Of a stretch of DNA of 20,000 nucleotides, positions 2,051 to 15,548 are shown piece by piece. The translations under genes were made by a program, and so were the position numbers. Source of the stretch: an uncultured virus (IMG/VR IMGVR_UViG_3300028840_003224) (lineage: Duplodnaviria; Heunggongvirae; Uroviricota; Caudoviricetes); the IMG/VR virus record IMGVR_UViG_3300028840_003224, positions 53,905 through 73,904 of that record; one strand, written 5' to 3'. The notes under the pieces are model-generated. The model did not search any database and had not been told where the DNA came from. It was given only the letters and a program-made list of their open reading frames with translations. Within the stretch, counting starts at the first letter, position 1. Every line of letters begins with the position of its first letter.

Positions 2051-2223
2051 AACCGAGCGCAATCAAACTCCTGGCTGCCGTCCGTGACGCCCACTCAGCC
2101 CTCGACAGGTTCATCGCCGCCGAGGGGTGGCGTCACGAGGACGAGATAAAGCCAGCGTACTGGGCAGCCGTGCAAGCCCTTGAAGACTTCAAAGCAGAAA
2201 TGGAAGAGGACCCTGGCCTGTGA
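2047..2223 (+). CDS. Hypothetical 58-aa protein (MKPSAIKLL...), not in ORF track
   Basis: GGAGG RBS, ATGA overlap at 2047, GTGA overlap with the HNH gene. Confidence 0.7.
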   Translation: MKPSAIKLLAAVRDAHSALDRFIAAEGWRHEDEIKPAYWAAVQALEDFKAEMEEDPGL

Positions 2224-2729
2224 GCGAGAAGTGGAAAGACATAGAAGGCTACGAAGGTGCATACCAAGTGTCTGACCTTGGGCGTGTCCGCTCGTTGCCT
2301 AGGGAAGCCAAGCATCCGACGCACGGAACCTGCCAGTTGAAGGGCCGGGTGCTGAAACACTTCTTCAACAATTTCGGGTATCACCAAGTTGGGCTATCTG
2401 GAAGAACCTTCAACGTTCACAAGCTGGTGGCAGAGGCGTTCCTAGGCCGTCGCCCAGAAGGTCACGAGGTTCGGCACGGGCCAGCAGGTTTAGGCGACAA
2501 CTCTGTTGACAATCTCAGCTATGGCACCCGACAGCAGAACGCGTTAGATCAACGAAGAGATGGAACCCATGGAGGGTCACCAGTAATCAGGAGTGACGGT
2601 GTTCGCTTCATAAACATCAGTGTTGCGGCTGAGGAGAGCGGTACATACCACAGTAACATTTGCAAAGCTTGCACCGGACAACGAAACACAGCAGGAGGGT
2701 ATAGCTGGACTTATGAGATTCAGACCTAA
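2220..2729 (+). CDS. Free-standing NUMOD4-HNH homing endonuclease with C-terminal NUMOD1-like HTH
   Basis: EKWKDIEGYEGAYQVSDLGRVRS (NUMOD4); VHKLVAEAF...VRH...DN..DNL......N (HNH); NICKAC..RNTAGGYSW tail. Confidence 0.92.
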   Translation: MSEKWKDIEGYEGAYQVSDLGRVRSLPREAKHPTHGTCQLKGRVLKHFFNNFGYHQVGLSGRTFNVHKLVAEAFLGRRPEGHEVRHGPAGLGDNSVDNLSYGTRQQNALDQRRDGTHGGSPVIRSDGVRFINISVAAEESGTYHSNICKACTGQRNTAGGYSWTYEIQT

Positions 2730-5932: not shown

Positions 5933-6208
5933 ATGCCGAACGAATCAAACATGCGAAACCTAAAGGCCCTGATGGACCTGCTGTCGGACAACCACGCTGA
6001 CATCACCGCACAAGCGGCTCACGTCAACGCACGAGTCATCTTGGCCGACGAGCGCAACTCGGAGCGGGCTGGTTCTGGCAGTGTAAGCCTCAAGTGGGCC
6101 GCTCGCCAGTTGGAGACCCTGGAAGAGCTGCTGGATAATCAACGGCGGCGAACGGCTCGCGTCCTGGCAGAAGTCAAAGCAATCAGAAAGAATCTGAAAA
6201 CGGTTTGA
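5933..6208 (+). CDS. Hypothetical coiled-coil protein
   Basis: AAGGA RBS then ATG 5933, just downstream of a promoter. Confidence 0.75.
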   Translation: MPNESNMRNLKALMDLLSDNHADITAQAAHVNARVILADERNSERAGSGSVSLKWAARQLETLEELLDNQRRRTARVLAEVKAIRKNLKTV

Positions 6209-6218
6209 AAGGTGAGCC

Positions 6219-6497
6219 ATGAAACTTGAACAATGGGCAGTGTCCAACCTCAGCGGCCCTTACACTCCTCCGGAGTGTCAGATCCGGTGCATCTCGGGAG
6301 TCGTCAGCGGGAGCCCGCTGTTCGAGGACGGGAAGTTCATCACGACGTCGCGCATCGTCTCTGTAGAGGGCCGAGTAGTGACGACCAACAGCGGCAGCGA
6401 ATACACCCTGGGCGACCCAGACCCTGACTACGTCGCGTGGTGTGTAGAGAACGGCTTCGACCCGCCGTCCGAAGAAAACCCTATCCGAGTCCTTTGA
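6219..6497 (+). CDS. Conserved-looking phage hypothetical protein (TSRI...TNSGSEYTLG)
   Basis: AAGGTG RBS; typical codon usage. Confidence 0.75.
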   Translation: MKLEQWAVSNLSGPYTPPECQIRCISGVVSGSPLFEDGKFITTSRIVSVEGRVVTTNSGSEYTLGDPDPDYVAWCVENGFDPPSEENPIRVL

Positions 6498-6522
6498 GGA
6501 GGGAAGCTTATGAAGATTTAAT

Positions 6523-6551
6523 TTGACAAGGCAACATTTGTGTGATAAGAT
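6523..6551 (+). promoter_or_regulatory. Sigma70-type promoter TTGACA-N17-TAAGAT with extended TG, heading the RNA cluster
   Basis: -35 at 6523-6528; TGn then -10 at 6546-6551 in an AT-rich intergenic stretch. Confidence 0.8.
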
Positions 6552-6755
6552 TGAGTATACCTTTAACGTAAACAGAAGAACAAGGCCACCGACCGAACGG
6601 CTGTGGCAGACAACCAACCAGGAGGACAGACCAATGTTTCAGGGGCTGTAATGGCCCCATCAGAGGACGACGAGCTAGGTGCTCAGTAGTGGTGAAATTG
6701 AGATAAATGATTTACCTCATACGATAAACAACACAGCCTAGCAAGTCAACACTGT

Positions 6756-6824
6756 GGACGCTTAGCTCAGTATGTTGAGAGCGCCCCGCTTGGGGAGGTC
6801 GCTGGTTCAAATCCGACAGGTCCA
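6756..6824 (+). ncRNA. tRNA-like RNA with collapsed anticodon arm (CCCC-GCTT-GGGG)
   Basis: TA-GCTC...GAGC D arm, AGGTC variable loop, TTCAAAT T loop; acceptor-like stem extends 6751/6828; anticodon arm 12 nt instead of 17. Confidence 0.7.
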
Positions 6825-6830
6825 CAGTAT

Positions 6831-6903
6831 TCCGGGATGGCGCAGTTGGTAGCGCGGCAGATTGTTAATCTGTAGGTCACTGGTTCGAGCCCAGTTCCCG
6901 GAG
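6831..6903 (+). tRNA. trnN: tRNA-Asn(GTT), CCA not encoded
   Basis: TCCGGGA/TCCCGGA acceptor; GCAGA-TTGTTAA-TCTGT anticodon arm; ACTGG-TTCGAGC-CCAGT T arm; discriminator G. Confidence 0.95.
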
Positions 6904-6965
6904 CTTGGTGAATTCTAGACGCGAGCACCTCTCTACCGGGACGTGGTGCGAAGCACACCAATGAC

Positions 6966-7034
6966 ATGTTTGTAGCTCAGTTGGTAGAGTGCCGGTGCCA
7001 CCGGTGGTCGGGGGTTCGAGTCCCTCCAGGCATG
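6966..7034 (+). ncRNA. tRNA-like RNA with 3-nt anticodon loop (CCGGT-GCC-ACCGG)
   Basis: Canonical D arm (TAGCTCAGTTGGTAGAGT) and T arm (GGGGG-TTCGAGT-CCCTC); acceptor ATGTTTG/CAGGCAT; anticodon arm 13 nt. Confidence 0.75.
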
Positions 7035-7047
7035 CTTGAAAGAGAGT

Positions 7048-7144
7048 GCGGAGAAAGAGGCGGGCAACAGTCCGGTTTTGACCTCACTAAGGCGAAGCAG
7101 TTTTGTGAGGAAGCTGTGGACCTCGACCCTCCGCTATTGAAACA
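7048..7144 (+). ncRNA. Unknown structured RNA, copy 1 (four-way junction, kissing loops)
   Basis: Stems GCGGAG/CTCCGC, GAGG/CCTC, CGGGC/GTCCG, GTTTTG/TAAGGC, GCAGTTT/AAGCTGT; loops ACCTCAC and TGTGAGG complementary; covaries with copy 2. Confidence 0.75.
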
Positions 7145-7151
7145 GAAGGAA

Positions 7152-7252
7152 GCAAAGTGAGGAGGCGGGCAGCGGCCCGGTTTTGGCCCTCACCAGGGCG
7201 AATCAGTATTGTGAGGGTGCTGAGGACCTCCAAGATCTTTGCAATTGAAACA
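7152..7252 (+). ncRNA. Unknown structured RNA, copy 2
   Basis: Stems GCAAAG/CTTTGC, GGAGG/CCTCC, CGGGC/GCCCG, GTTTTG/CAGGGC, TCAGTAT/GTGCTGA; loops GCCCTCAC and TGTGAGG. Confidence 0.75.
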
Positions 7253-7256
7253 CCAC

Positions 7257-7354
7257 CCTGGCTGCGGGGACTCTGGGACGTCCAGGTGTGACGTCCTTGC
7301 TTGTAACTGAAGGGTTCGATCCCCATTGGGTAGGTTGCAAGCCCCGCAGCTGGG
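7257..7354 (+). ncRNA. Structured RNA with T-loop hairpin in a three-way junction
   Basis: Closing stem GCTGCGGGG/CCCCGCAGC; hairpin GGACGTC/GACGTCC; stem CTTGTAACT/GGTTGCAAG enclosing GGG-TTCGATC-CCC. Confidence 0.65.
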
Positions 7355-7374
7355 ATTTCACAACGGAGAAGACG

Positions 7375-7449
7375 ATGAACTTACTTTTACCACTGTTGAT
7401 AATCGCCGTGCTGCTGGTGGCGTGGCTAACTGGAGGTGACAACATCTGA
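7375..7449 (+). CDS. 24-aa single-helix membrane peptide (MNLLLPLLIIAVLLVAWLTGGDNI)
   Basis: GGAG RBS; TGATG coupling to next ORF; not in ORF track. Confidence 0.6.
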   Translation: MNLLLPLLIIAVLLVAWLTGGDNI

Positions 7450-7691
7450 TGCTTGACGTACTGAGCGAAGAGAAGACGAAGAACGAAGGGAACGACATCG
7501 GCCCGTTGGTGTGGGACTGCCTCGCCAGCCATACTAGCCTGCCTCGGGCCGCGTGCAAGTCCCTGATCTACTGCCTGATCTACGGCGGACCTGTGCTCAA
7601 GATCTGCCGAGACAACAAGCTGGGTATCACCGAGATCATGTTGATCCGGACCACGTTCGACGACATTATGGAAGGCCATATCGCCCTTTAA
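7449..7691 (+). CDS. 80-aa protein resembling the PolA fingers/O-helix region
   Basis: GGAGGT RBS; RAACKSLIYCLIYGG matches RxxxKxxxYxxxYG. Confidence 0.65.
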   Translation: MLDVLSEEKTKNEGNDIGPLVWDCLASHTSLPRAACKSLIYCLIYGGPVLKICRDNKLGITEIMLIRTTFDDIMEGHIAL

Positions 7692-7714
7692 CCCTTAACC
7701 ACTTGGAGACTGTC

Positions 7715-7879
7715 ATGCGAAGTAAATGGCACGAGAGACAGGAAGAGAAGAAAGCCCTCATGGAAGAGAACGCAACGGAGCGTGCGAAACGCTCAAACAA
7801 AGAGCAGCTTGAGGCTCTTGACTTCCGCCTTGGGAAAGGCGTCGGAGCGAAGAAAGAAAGGAAACGGCTGGCCGAATGA
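7715..7879 (+). CDS. Small basic phage protein (QLEALDFRLGKGVGAKKERKRL)
   Basis: GGAG RBS then ATG 7715; ATGA overlap downstream. Confidence 0.75.
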   Translation: MRSKWHERQEEKKALMEENATERAKRSNKEQLEALDFRLGKGVGAKKERKRLAE

Positions 7880-8142
7880 TCGATCTGATACTGGGCTGGG
7901 CGTTGGCAGCCACCGTCATACTGCTGCTATTGTCATGGGCCCATAGTGACATGAACCGAGAGCTGGAGAGAGCCCTACAAGGGTGGCGCAAGGCAGCGGC
8001 CCTCAAGGACGAAGCTAAGAAGGAGCGCATGAGGTCCGACAAAGAGTGCGAACGACTCAAGTTAGAGCTGTCTGTGGCGAACGCTCGCCGCATCCAAGTC
8101 CTCGACGATATGCATGAGGCCCTCGAACAGCACGAATATTAA
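7876..8142 (+). CDS. Membrane-anchored coiled-coil protein
   Basis: N-terminal hydrophobic helix, charged helical remainder. Confidence 0.7.
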   Translation: MIDLILGWALAATVILLLLSWAHSDMNRELERALQGWRKAAALKDEAKKERMRSDKECERLKLELSVANARRIQVLDDMHEALEQHEY

Positions 8143-8147
8143 ACGCT

Positions 8148-8216
8148 TGCGGATGGGCTGGTGCTCAGCCGGGCCTCATAAGCCTGGACTCGAAGGTTCA
8201 ATCCCTTCATCCGCAA
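8148..8216 (+). tRNA. tRNA with CAT anticodon (Met or Ile2), shortened D arm
   Basis: TGCGGAT/ATCCGCA acceptor; CGGGC-CTCATAA-GCCTG; GAAGG-TTCAATC-CCTTC; only 15 nt between acceptor and anticodon stems. Confidence 0.8.
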
Positions 8217-8218
8217 CT

Positions 8219-8336
8219 TGATCGGTTCTCCTCGCGGCTTGCAGTACACAAGCTGCCAACCCCTGCCAGGGGTAACTAGCGGGGAAGCGGGCTCGCGCGA
8301 GCCCACGGCATGGGGTGCAATTCCTTGGCCGATCAC
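8219..8336 (+). ncRNA. Enlarged tRNA-like RNA: acceptor plus T-like arm, tetraloop hairpin instead of anticodon arm, branched domain instead of D arm
   Basis: TGATCGGT/GCCGATCA; TGGGG-TGCAATT-CCTTG; GGGCTC-GCGC-GAGCCC; TCCTCGC/GCGGGGA enclosing two hairpins. Confidence 0.65.
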
Positions 8337-8345
8337 TTACTGAAA

Positions 8346-8458
8346 TGCACCGAGGACTCTAGACCCGTGGTCCTCTGGTTGGTGCAGTCTCGTCTGGGCT
8401 TGGGCGGCGAAGTGGTAGACCAATACCCTCACCCCGGCCCAGCGAGGCGAACGGGTAT
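8346..8458 (+). ncRNA. Candidate structured RNA, two stacked stems with possible pseudoknot
   Basis: TGCACC/GGTGCA plus GAGGAC/GTCCTC; GTCTCG/CGAGGC plus CTGGGCT/GGCCCAG; loop ACCCGT complementary to ACGGGT 8451-8456. Confidence 0.5.
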
Positions 8459-8531
8459 GCCCCGTTAGACTAATGGCCATGTCGCCACCCTTTCAAGGTG
8501 GAGGTTGCGAGTTCGAGTCTCGCACGGGGTA
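8459..8531 (+). tRNA. trnE: tRNA-Glu(TTC), CCA not encoded
   Basis: GCCCCGT/ACGGGGT; CCACC-CTTTCAA-GGTGG; GCGAG-TTCGAGT-CTCGC. Confidence 0.93.
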
Positions 8532-8533
8532 CT

Positions 8534-8610
8534 GTGGTCGTAGCTCAATTAGTTAGAGCGTCGGATTGTGATTCCGAAGGTTGTGGATGCGAGTTCCACC
8601 GGCCACCCCA
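8534..8610 (+). tRNA. trnH: tRNA-His(GTG) with atypical elbow, CCA encoded
   Basis: GTGGTCG/CGGCCAC; TCGGA-TTGTGAT-TCCGA; GTGGA-TGCGAGT-TCCAC; C73 then CCA. Confidence 0.9.
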
Positions 8611-8635
8611 AACACCCTTAACCCTGGAGAGAATC

Positions 8636-9013
8636 GTGGAAGAACAAGTATTTGAACTCATCGAGACCGTGAAGGCTGGCTTGCCAGTCGTGTCCGAACA
8701 AGCTGTGCGTGCCTTACTCATCGACAAGTGGGTGGGGTTACTCTTCGGTCTCTTAGGCTTGCTCGTGACCATCCCGGCCAGTGTCTGGGCCATTCGGTGC
8801 TGGTACAAAGACTGCAAGCATGACGACGACTACATGATGGACCGCGACATGGAAGGCTTCATGCTGGTCGCCGCCGTCGTCCCTTCCGCTCTCGCGATCA
8901 TATCCTTGATCATCGTCGGCATCAATCTGTCCAGCATCATCAGCATCTCCAGCTGCCCGGACTACTACGCCGTGCTGCAAGTCATCGAGATGGCGAAGGG
9001 CGCGGTCAAATGA
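8636..9013 (+). CDS. Membrane protein with two TM helices
   Basis: GGAG RBS then GTG 8636; the listed start at 8498 overlaps tRNAs. Confidence 0.75.
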   Translation: MEEQVFELIETVKAGLPVVSEQAVRALLIDKWVGLLFGLLGLLVTIPASVWAIRCWYKDCKHDDDYMMDRDMEGFMLVAAVVPSALAIISLIIVGINLSSIISISSCPDYYAVLQVIEMAKGAVK

Positions 9014-14868: not shown

Positions 14869-15548
14869 GCTTGATAAACCTCAGACACTTCCACACCAAC
14901 GTGCGGACATTCAAACACCCTCTCCTGGACCACTGTAAGCCCTACAGGGACTCCGAACTGGACCTGCTGTGTGCGGTGGTGATAGGCTGTCCGGACGAGG
15001 GAGAGAGGCTTGTGCTCGCTCTCAGGTCATGTCTACGCCACATGATCCGTAGGTATCTCGCCAACTTCCCCCAGACCGAGGCCTACTTGGATGACATGGT
15101 CAGTGAAGGGTTTCTGGCAATTTGTGACTTAGTTGAGAATTTAAGCGTTGACTTATTGAATGGGCGGACTATACTTTATGTAGCGTCTCAACGTATTCAA
15201 TCCAGCATTGAGCTGATGCTGAACAAGGTGCAGAGTCTGTCGGCACCATCCAGGATGACTCAGTTCAGACGGGTGAAAGAAGACAAAGACCCAATCTATC
15301 TCAGCCAGACTAGCCTGGACGATGTGGATGTGGATGTGGACGACCAACGCATGATGTTCAACATCCGGGACGTGTACGAAGGTCTGGAGAAGATAGAGGC
15401 ACGTGACTGGCTGGACGCCATGCTGCTGTGTCCGGAGAACTGGGGCAGGACTGAGGCGGATCTGGCGGATGAGTTTGGTATAGGCAAGACCACCATCCAC
15501 CGAAGAAAGAAAGAATTGTACGACGAGTTCCTTAAACTTACGAGGTGA
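14865..15548 (+). CDS. Sigma70-like transcription factor (regions 2 and 4)
   Basis: LDDMVSEGFLAI (region 2.2-like); TEADLADEFGIGKTTIHRRK HTH. Start at ATG 14865. Confidence 0.7.
   Translation: MSLINLRHFHTNVRTFKHPLLDHCKPYRDSELDLLCAVVIGCPDEGERLVLALRSCLRHMIRRYLANFPQTEAYLDDMVSEGFLAICDLVENLSVDLLNGRTILYVASQRIQSSIELMLNKVQSLSAPSRMTQFRRVKEDKDPIYLSQTSLDDVDVDVDDQRMMFNIRDVYEGLEKIEARDWLDAMLLCPENWGRTEADLADEFGIGKTTIHRRKKELYDEFLKLTR
15148..15175 (+). promoter_or_regulatory. Candidate intragenic promoter TTGACT-N16-TATACT
   Basis: AT-rich patch; followed by TTATGTAG, like TTAGGTAG and TTAAGTAG after other promoters. Confidence 0.5.

Follow-up and report, generated by a model that had tools for sequence, protein, structure and literature searches.

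Two tRNA-shaped elements with collapsed anticodon loops in an uncultured phage: processing or stability modules, or recently dead genes?

Why would a phage carry two transfer RNA (tRNA) shapes with almost no anticodon loop? The question is raised by a 20,000-nucleotide (nt) stretch of DNA, hereafter the window, which is the last 20 kilobases (kb) of the 73.9-kb IMG/VR virus record IMGVR_UViG_3300028840_003224 (estimated completeness 70%). The window contains phage-type genes, including a family-A DNA polymerase, an HNH endonuclease, a radical-SAM protein and a ligase, among others. We named the two elements e1 (tRNA-like core at 6756-6824) and e2 (6966-7034). It is close to certain that both are tRNA-derived and unable to decode. 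They may be kept for a purpose, as cutting or stabilizing signals for neighboring RNAs, or else be recently dead genes. The two elements, their anticodon-arm stubs and the tRNA between them are:

6751-6828, + strand: e1, with its core (6756-6824) closed by an 11-base-pair (bp) helix with a bulged G6760; 32.8 bits in Rfam, 39.5 bits with our own tRNA model
6784-6795, + strand: e1 anticodon-arm stub CCCC-GCTT-GGGG, 12 nt, which keeps C32 and U33 and lacks positions 34-38
6831-6903, + strand: canonical tRNA-Asn(GUU) between e1 and e2; called by ARAGORN, 68.3 bits in Rfam
6966-7034, + strand: e2, tRNA-shaped element derived from tRNA-Trp; 51.0 bits in Rfam, 82-86% identity to Rhodococcus phage tRNA-Trp
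6992-7004, + strand: e2 anticodon-arm stub CCGGT-GCC-ACCGG, 13 nt, read from the sequence; Trp stem intact, loop CTCCAAA replaced by GCC

Both elements matched the Rfam tRNA model (RF00005, gathering score 29 bits) over its full length, positions 1-71, and the anticodon loop was the sole part skipped in either alignment. An earlier note, made from the letters of the window, had described short anticodon arms of 12 and 13 nt on either side of a normal tRNA-Asn, and this description is confirmed in both respects. The variable loops are AGGTC in e1 and TGGTC in e2, and the T loops are TTCAAAT and TTCGAGT. The anticodon-arm loops measure 2-4 nt in e1 and 3-5 nt in e2, and the canonical arm, with a 5-bp stem, a 7-nt loop, U33 and a purine at position 37, is found in neither. 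ARAGORN, which the note had expected to return undetermined or pseudogene calls, missed e1 and labeled e2 as a 70-nt 'tRNA-Gly (gcc)' with its anticodon at position 32. We reject this call as an artifact. Because the e2 body matches a tRNA-Trp (locus L196, see below), the GCC is not a glycine anticodon but the remnant of the loop. Folding z-scores were not decisive, at -2.28 for e1 (fold energy -30.6 kcal/mol), -0.56 for e2 and -2.47 for the tRNA-Asn.

Judged by its letters, e2 is a descendant of tRNA-Trp(CCA). In a phage collection it was most similar to genes annotated as tRNA-Trp in Rhodococcus phages, at 82-86% identity and with E values as low as 1e-9; their records are 4 nt longer than e2 across the arm. 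A pattern made of the D-arm, anticodon-stem and T-arm letters of e2 around a free loop of 3-7 nt, which finds only sequences identical at the specified letters, had five matches in a collection of species genomes, all in Actinomycetota metagenome-assembled genomes (MAGs) and all with a 7-nt loop. In viral contigs a strict e2 pattern found five stretches, four of them with a 7-nt loop; the sole short one belongs to a near-identical twin of this phage. Positions 8-65 of e2 equal those of the tRNA-Trp L196 in one Actinomycetota MAG (G055), except for the loop and a C25T change that keeps G10.U25. We base the Trp descent on G055, since the four further MAG copies identical to L196 (G051-G054) are from unpublished genomes and serve as a count only.

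The differences between e2 and L196 are clustered. Only one of the 51 core positions outside the loop has changed, compared with 7 of the 14 acceptor positions (Fisher p = 3.5e-5), and all seven acceptor pairs still form. U-A has replaced G-C at pairs 2-71 and 6-67, and pairs 4-69 and 5-68 are now U.G; the chance of four altered pairs staying paired is ~0.03. The shortening of the loop from 7 to 3 nt, CTCCAAA to GCC, needs at least two events. e2 is otherwise flawless, with 7/7 pairs in the acceptor, 4/4 in the D stem including G10.U25, and 5/5 in the T stem. The canonical features kept in full are the 7-bp acceptor, a D arm with G18G19, a TTCRA T loop and the tertiary pair 15-48. The statement in the earlier note that D arm, variable loop, T loop and acceptor pairing are preserved holds fully for e2. 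For e1 it holds in part, given a bulge in the acceptor, a mismatch in the T stem and a D loop without GG.

In bacteria, tRNA-Trp identity is set by the discriminator G73, the anticodon and the first pair, and in Bacillus subtilis also by G2-C71, G3-C70 and G4-C69, according to a review of tRNA identity (PMC9976931). Of this set e2 keeps G73, A1-U72 and G3-C70. It has lost the loop geometry as well as 2-71 (now U-A) and 4-69 (now U.G), and with them two of the three acceptor pairs listed there as strong determinants for the B. subtilis tryptophanyl-tRNA synthetase (TrpRS). As it reads, e2 would not present the TrpRS identity set. Its changes fall where translation function resides, and the parts that make the tRNA shape are spared.

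The parent of e1 is less evident. The best matches among annotated phage genes were a tRNA-Val (75%, E = 0.02) and a tRNA-Ile (72%, E = 0.7), and the best match in Escherichia coli genomes was a tRNA-Ile at E = 6. The longest match in G055, 72% over positions 8-59, was to a gene that ARAGORN calls tRNA-Ile(GAU) and was the best cellular match. e1 is thus weakly Ile/Val-like and may have had a parent of the Ile(GAU) type. Relative to tRNA-Ile(GAU), the 5-position stem and C32 U33 are kept and positions 34-38 are gone, for which a single 5-nt deletion would suffice. Body similarity within the phage family gave no clear parent for either element: the best values, 0.67 for e1 and 0.72 for e2, are typical of any tRNA pair. 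e1 and e2 come from different tRNAs; the note had called the two sequences dissimilar. The acceptor helix of e1 extends by five pairs into the flanks (6751-6762 with 6818-6828), whereas the four canonical tRNAs and e2 have 0-1 extra pairs. A partial likeness of e1 was seen in a prophage-like region of the E. coli chromosome (L183 55-126), where an annotated 72-nt tRNA-Ile lies beside a tRNA-Arg in 49 of 5426 E. coli genomes. Its variable loop and T arm are almost exactly those of e1, and its D/anticodon region, read by eye, did not resolve into a standard arm.

The elements are not an assembly artifact, as both are present in a second contig, G001 (101.6 kb, 96% complete), from the same phage. 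Over 73,281 aligned bases, this twin differs from the window record at a single position, window 6788, the first base of the e1 stub loop, which is G here and A in G001. The variant turns G31.U39 into A31-U39. The chance of one random change hitting the 12-nt arm of e1 is 1.6e-4, a value for a single event judged post hoc. DNA contigs of two public runs showed no difference over 6500-7400, although this DNA may itself stem from those runs. Among RNA runs, none was listed as containing 6400-7500. According to ARAGORN, which called five genes on the window, the tRNA genes of this phage are Pro, Asn, Met, Glu and His plus the false Gly, and neither a normal tRNA-Trp nor a normal tRNA-Ile was found in the phage with this program.

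e1 and e2 lie in a cluster of tRNAs and predicted structured noncoding RNAs (ncRNAs). The promoter and the two ncRNAs nearest to e2 are:

6523-6551, + strand: sigma-70-like promoter TTGACA-17-TAAGAT with TG before the -10 hexamer; 10/12 matches
7048-7138, + strand: R1, structured ncRNA beginning ~13 nt after e2; predicted fold, with a similar RNA directly after tRNA-Asn in L005, L009 and L106
7156-7236, + strand: R2, structured ncRNA and tandem relative of R1; predicted fold, similarity to R1

The promoter was the best of six sites in 6100-8900 (shuffles: mean 0.8), and no terminator-like site was found on the + strand after it before 8717. From these signals, it is likely the start of a tRNA/ncRNA operon. 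Downstream of it follow a structured leader, e1, tRNA-Asn, a 62-nt spacer, e2, R1, R2, another long-stem RNA and small open reading frames (ORFs), and then a tRNA-Met with a short D arm, more structured RNA, tRNA-Glu and tRNA-His. Each R-type ncRNA has an outer helix and two hairpins, one of them GGCGGGC...CCCGG, and always stands directly after a tRNA or tRNA shape. Members elsewhere are L005 14282-14404, L009 14400-14488 and L106 14593-14668. RNAalifold on the five R-type sequences found a compensatory change in 13 of 22 predicted pairs, in an alignment that is rough.

Other structured RNAs of this cluster and of a relative (window 7257-7355 and 8218-8340; L083 1466-1533) have T-arm-like hairpins (GGGTTCGATCCCC; GGGGTGCAATTCC) in long closing helices. 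They resemble acceptor-plus-T-arm shapes with large inserts, and neither the Rfam tRNA model nor our own matched them. Other Rfam families, at E up to 5, gave only sub-threshold, chance-level matches in 6300-8800. The tRNA-Met(CAU) at window 8148-8217 is 69-70 nt long and has a very short D loop with a normal anticodon arm. It looks functional, because it is kept (L005 15098-15167) in a relative with a polymerase 74% identical.

To place the locus among its relatives we used the polymerase, which has 513 relatives at E <= 1e-20 (8000 candidates scored), on metagenomic contigs of ~100 kb. The closer polymerases (P0002-P0005) are 77-83% identical to that of this phage. Around polymerase relatives we sampled 80 viral and 80 metagenomic loci, ~160 in all. 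A free-standing gene for an HNH/NUMOD4 homing-type endonuclease (window 2220-2729) overlaps the start of the longest polymerase reading frame in this phage. In relatives the layout is promoter, leader and tRNA-Asn, followed by a ribosome-binding site (RBS) and ORF after ~20-30 nt or by an R-type RNA after ~10 nt. A tRNA or tRNA shape thus stands directly before an RBS and ORF or before an R-type ncRNA.

The signature tRNA of the family is tRNA-Asn(GUU), which ARAGORN called in 29 of the 80 viral loci, no more than 10 kb from the polymerase. It is often accompanied by tRNA-Thr(UGU) and usually lies after a strong promoter and just before an ORF. In one relative, L103, an anticodon-defective tRNA shape (14947-15017; TCGG-CAGTACA-CCGA, with a 4-bp stem and no U33) occupies the slot that holds tRNA-Asn in its close relative L110 (14781-14853). 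The next 220 nt downstream are 94.5% identical between the two and the tRNA only 67%, a contrast that hints at either a swapped cassette or a tRNA-Asn in the course of dying.

Are such short arms found elsewhere in the family? The earlier note proposed looking for conserved short arms in related phages, and other stub-armed shapes do exist there. We built our own tRNA covariance model on 28 sequences of the family. Five of these are short-armed and so are bound to match it, and the model finds only elements with an intact acceptor and T arm. A first set of 78 sources gave 96 matches at E <= 1e-3, which fall into the following classes by the length of the stretch between position 26 and the T stem:

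22-24 nt: 72 matches, normal
21 nt or less: 8 matches, namely e1, e2, L047, L069, L081, two in L082, and L023
27-35 nt: 6 matches, mostly tRNAs with a long variable arm
42 nt or more: 10 matches, with an inserted module

A second set of 70 sources gave 45 matches. Six had 21 nt or less, of which L175 has a normal arm, leaving five aberrant ones; L145 and L147 repeat the L047 element. In both sets together, 13 of 141 tRNA-model matches (~9%) are stub-armed. The L069 stub, CCCC-TAAC-GGGG, merely resembles that of e1, and no stub in the relatives is orthologous to e1 or e2. L055 6109-6182, 'tRNA-???' in ARAGORN, was rejected as a stub, since its letters can be read as a 17-nt arm that has the anticodon UGU and a G.G mismatch.

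Eight of the ten long inserts are 68-86-nt modules with GGGCCGAA / GYGTTATC-type words or close variants. Of the remaining two, the one in L057 is a long hairpin of 42 nt and the one in L066 a shorter insert of 47 nt. Distant relatives contain RNAs of 120-137 nt with normal tRNA acceptor, D and T arms in which a Y-RNA-like module (CTTGCC-loop-GGGCCGAA ... GCGTTATC) replaces the anticodon loop:

tRNA-scaffold Y-type chimeras: L068 7011-7271; L066 7135-7391; L052 270-389; L065 9450-9570; L038 16221-16357; L172 14879-15002

By their arrangement, the chimeras amount to a circularly permuted Y RNA with its ends in the tRNA acceptor stem. Free-standing Y-like RNAs lie beside them. One (L068 7483-7547) scores 37 bits against a threshold of 38 for the Rfam nematode stem-bulge RNA family, a Y-RNA homolog. 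TROVE (Ro60/Rsr) is encoded by all five chimera-bearing phages checked, namely those above except L172, and by 14 of 50 records overall (9 of the 19 that are at least 90% complete). It was not found in six stub-bearing phages, including the twin G001 (96% complete), several of these records being incomplete. The Y-RNA motif GNCGAAN0-1G occurs seven times in 6300-8800, including in R1, and is too short for this to be meaningful. That e2 is itself the remnant of a Y-RNA chimera is ruled out, its stem and flanks being those of a genuine tRNA-Trp.

What could e1 and e2 be doing? We tentatively favor, at a little under even chances, the reading that they are tRNA-shaped RNAs which do not decode and are retained for that shape, serving as modules for RNase P/Z processing or for stability. 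We favor it because the parts that make the shape are kept and those that serve translation are erased, because the elements stand at RNA borders in one promoter-driven unit, and because the family repeatedly uses a tRNA scaffold with a lower arm that is not an anticodon arm. The clustered, pairing-preserving changes of e2, the closing pairs gained by e1 and the defective tRNA shape in the tRNA-Asn slot of L103 also count in its favor. Among the alternatives raised in the earlier note, RNase P/Z processing signals would seem to fit the operon layout best. The sequences show the tRNA descent, the missing decoding loop, the non-random changes in e2 and the layout of the operon, while transcription, RNase P/Z cleavage and a benefit to the phage are inferred. 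e1 and e2 would be transcribed from 6523-6551 within one long precursor that also holds the leader RNA, tRNA-Asn, at least R1 and R2, small ORFs and further tRNAs. The parts kept are those read by RNase P, RNase Z and the CCA-adding enzyme, namely the acceptor/T-arm stack and, in e2, also the D/T elbow. Erased are parts required for translation: the anticodon loop of 7 nt in both and the acceptor identity pairs in e2. The likely role would be punctuation and protection of neighboring RNAs. Clean cuts at e2 might free the spacer RNA and define where R1 begins. At e1, leader and trailer paired in the 11-bp helix may cap the leader RNA with a 3' fold; the end of that RNA would be set by the RNase P cut at tRNA-Asn +1, two bases downstream of e1.

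Several findings weigh against this reading. e1 has three lesions of the decay type: an acceptor one 3' nucleotide short, which leaves G6760 bulged, a C50xA64 mismatch in the T stem, and a D loop without G18G19. With its leader and trailer paired, it is ill suited to RNase P cleavage at +1. The acceptor changes of e2 may predate the loop lesion and have arisen when it still functioned as a tRNA of the phage, and its folding energy is unremarkable (z = -0.56). Relatives use tRNA-Asn alone as a processing site, so e1 and e2 are not obviously needed. The rule that only the anticodon arm varies is partly ascertainment, and some stubs in relatives look eroded, such as the 3-bp stem of L047, weakened further in L147 by one change. 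Orthologs of e1 and e2 were found only in the near-identical twin when e1, e2 and nine other aberrant-armed elements were compared by blastn with the ~160 loci, and a single-protein query with the polymerase likewise found only the twin. L005, by contrast, retains the tRNA-Met found in this cluster, so e1 and e2 are young or lineage-specific.

The main rival reading is that e1 and e2 are young pseudogenes: a phage Ile-like and a phage Trp tRNA gene with small loop deletions, not yet erased and without function. We regard this as a real possibility, somewhat less likely than the first reading. It accommodates the lineage specificity, the three further lesions in e1, the eroding anticodon arms in other lineages (L103; L047 and its variant L147), the relatives that manage with tRNA-Asn alone and a model that detects only intact top halves. 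The earlier note held that retained pairing argues against decay. This evidence is weak, because deletions inside a loop leave the stem untouched, and hence paired without selection; e1 fits a single 5-nt deletion, and part of the e2 change is the contraction of an A-run, a likely slippage site. Moreover, the sole difference between the contigs falls in the e1 hairpin loop, where G-to-A is C-to-T on the other strand and would suit a mutation-prone loop cytosine. What decay explains less readily is the same rare type of lesion in two neighbors of different ancestry, and stub arms in ~9% of matches in phage genomes, which are compact. Scattered helix-breaking changes are present in e1, and there are none in e2, whose loop has undergone at least two events while all helices and 50 of the 51 other core positions are unaltered. 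e1 has gained five closing pairs instead of losing pairs. The substitution pattern of e2, its two or more loop events without a broken helix and the longer helix of e1 argue against plain decay.

Three further explanations are less probable. e1 and e2 could be decoys, the main idea of the earlier note, that occupy a host factor binding tRNA bodies, in the case of e2 a defense nuclease or other protein specific for tRNA-Trp, while being uncuttable in the loop and not interfering with decoding. We consider this unlikely, as the analysis gave no support for decoys of nucleases, synthetases or sensors beyond the exact tRNA-Trp body of e2. The Actinomycetota-type tRNA-Trp body is kept exactly in e2, including the anticodon-stem pair U31-A39, the letters CCA, G73 and A1-U72, and the family nearly always has tRNA-Asn and often tRNA-Thr(UGU), tRNA kinds that some phages use against tRNA-cutting defenses. 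Yet no defense or anti-defense gene was linked to the locus in this analysis, e1 lacks both an anticodon and the elbow GG, and a stoichiometric sponge is a weak strategy against an enzyme. To our knowledge, phage counter-tRNAs are full decoding tRNAs with loop substitutions and are not loopless. The strongest form of this idea, in which e2 would be a purpose-built, uncleavable and unchargeable copy of the host tRNA-Trp body and e1 an older one of Ile type, both made in bulk to occupy a nuclease, modification enzyme or sensor, is equally hard to credit. We also give little credence to scars at the DNA level, in which anticodon-loop DNA was hit by a site-specific nuclease, such as a homing endonuclease acting on tRNA genes, or was the seat of a module later lost imprecisely, the short loops being resistant or repaired alleles. 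Relatives do bear large modules exactly at the anticodon position, and this phage has the HNH/NUMOD4 endonuclease at 2220-2729. But that gene lies 4 kb away with nothing to tie it to the tRNA genes, the stem and flanks of e2 equal those of a genuine tRNA-Trp with no trace of an insert, and no intron-bearing tRNA was seen in the loci searched. That the elements are working tRNAs that decode through a miniature anticodon loop is scarcely credible. The ARAGORN call of tRNA-Gly(GCC) and a pentaloop register U-G-C-C-A in e2, with U before GCC and A after it, would speak for it. However, the body of e2 is that of tRNA-Trp and not of tRNA-Gly, and e1 has no candidate anticodon at all. The U-turn geometry of tRNAs needs a 7-nt anticodon loop and cannot form in one of 3-5 nt.

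If the elements do work as processing or stability modules, phages would have put tRNA genes to a new and general use, as hardware for cutting, capping or displaying other RNAs. The scaffold forms in this family, from empty stubs to the Y-RNA module in Rsr-encoding phages and long hairpins, would form a graded series, and the idea is therefore testable. If instead the decoy explanation were true, stub-armed phage tRNA shapes would be a class of RNA anti-defense decoys. For annotation, the ARAGORN label 'tRNA-Gly' for e2 would wrongly enter analyses of codon usage or anti-defense in phage tRNA sets.

A survey of titles and abstract openings, subscription journals excluded, found no paper on phage tRNA genes with collapsed anticodon loops. 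Phage tRNAs that evade tRNA-cutting defenses are the subject of, e.g., PMC11555353. In general, tRNAs of this kind are likewise phage-borne, altered in the anticodon loop and located in tRNA clusters. They are full-length, decoding and substituted, whereas e1 and e2, with their collapsed loop, cannot decode. Y RNAs that contain tRNA-like domains are known from bacteria and phages, and the tRNA fold has been suggested to protect the RNA or mediate contacts (Chen et al. 2014, PMC4201824). The tRNA-like domain of YrlA is described there as a non-decoding tRNA mimic with D and T arms and a substrate of tRNA enzymes, and e1 and e2 are likewise tRNA-shaped and non-decoding. A further link is the presence of genes for Rsr/TROVE and for tRNA-scaffolded Y modules in relatives of the phage. 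Unlike YrlA, e1 and e2 have no Ro-binding module and no GNCGAAN0-1G helix, and the Rfam YrlA model gave only a sub-threshold match in the window (29 bits versus 69), over tRNA-Glu/His.

Closer in the role that we propose are RNAs used as processing marks. mascRNA and menRNA, at the ends of MALAT1 and MEN-beta, share with e1 and e2 the tRNA shape and a compact loop equivalent to the anticodon loop; they recruit RNase P and RNase Z via the elbow (PMC11693755), are not aminoacylated and define the end of a neighboring RNA. They are eukaryotic and have a reduced D arm without linker residues, unlike e2 with its full canonical D arm and junction. The t-elements of plant mitochondria have been defined as non-canonical cloverleaves that guide cutting by RNase P/Z (Forner et al. 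2007, PMC1920247). They keep a conserved T arm, as e1 and e2 do, and lie within longer transcripts at the borders of other RNAs, as e1 and e2 would. The fold of a t-element, a non-canonical cloverleaf with a conserved T arm, is found in both e1 and e2, and both would also be co-transcribed with their neighbors. t-elements are organellar and their ends were mapped experimentally, in contrast to a phage operon known from sequence alone. In addition, and unlike t-elements, e2 still shows an exact tRNA ancestry, and e1 is closed by a long helix. Finally, e1 and e2 resemble ordinary tRNA pseudogenes of phage clusters in being tRNA-derived, non-decoding and lineage-specific. They differ from these in that e2 has no scattered helix-breaking changes and its acceptor changes keep pairing, while the helix of e1 grew.

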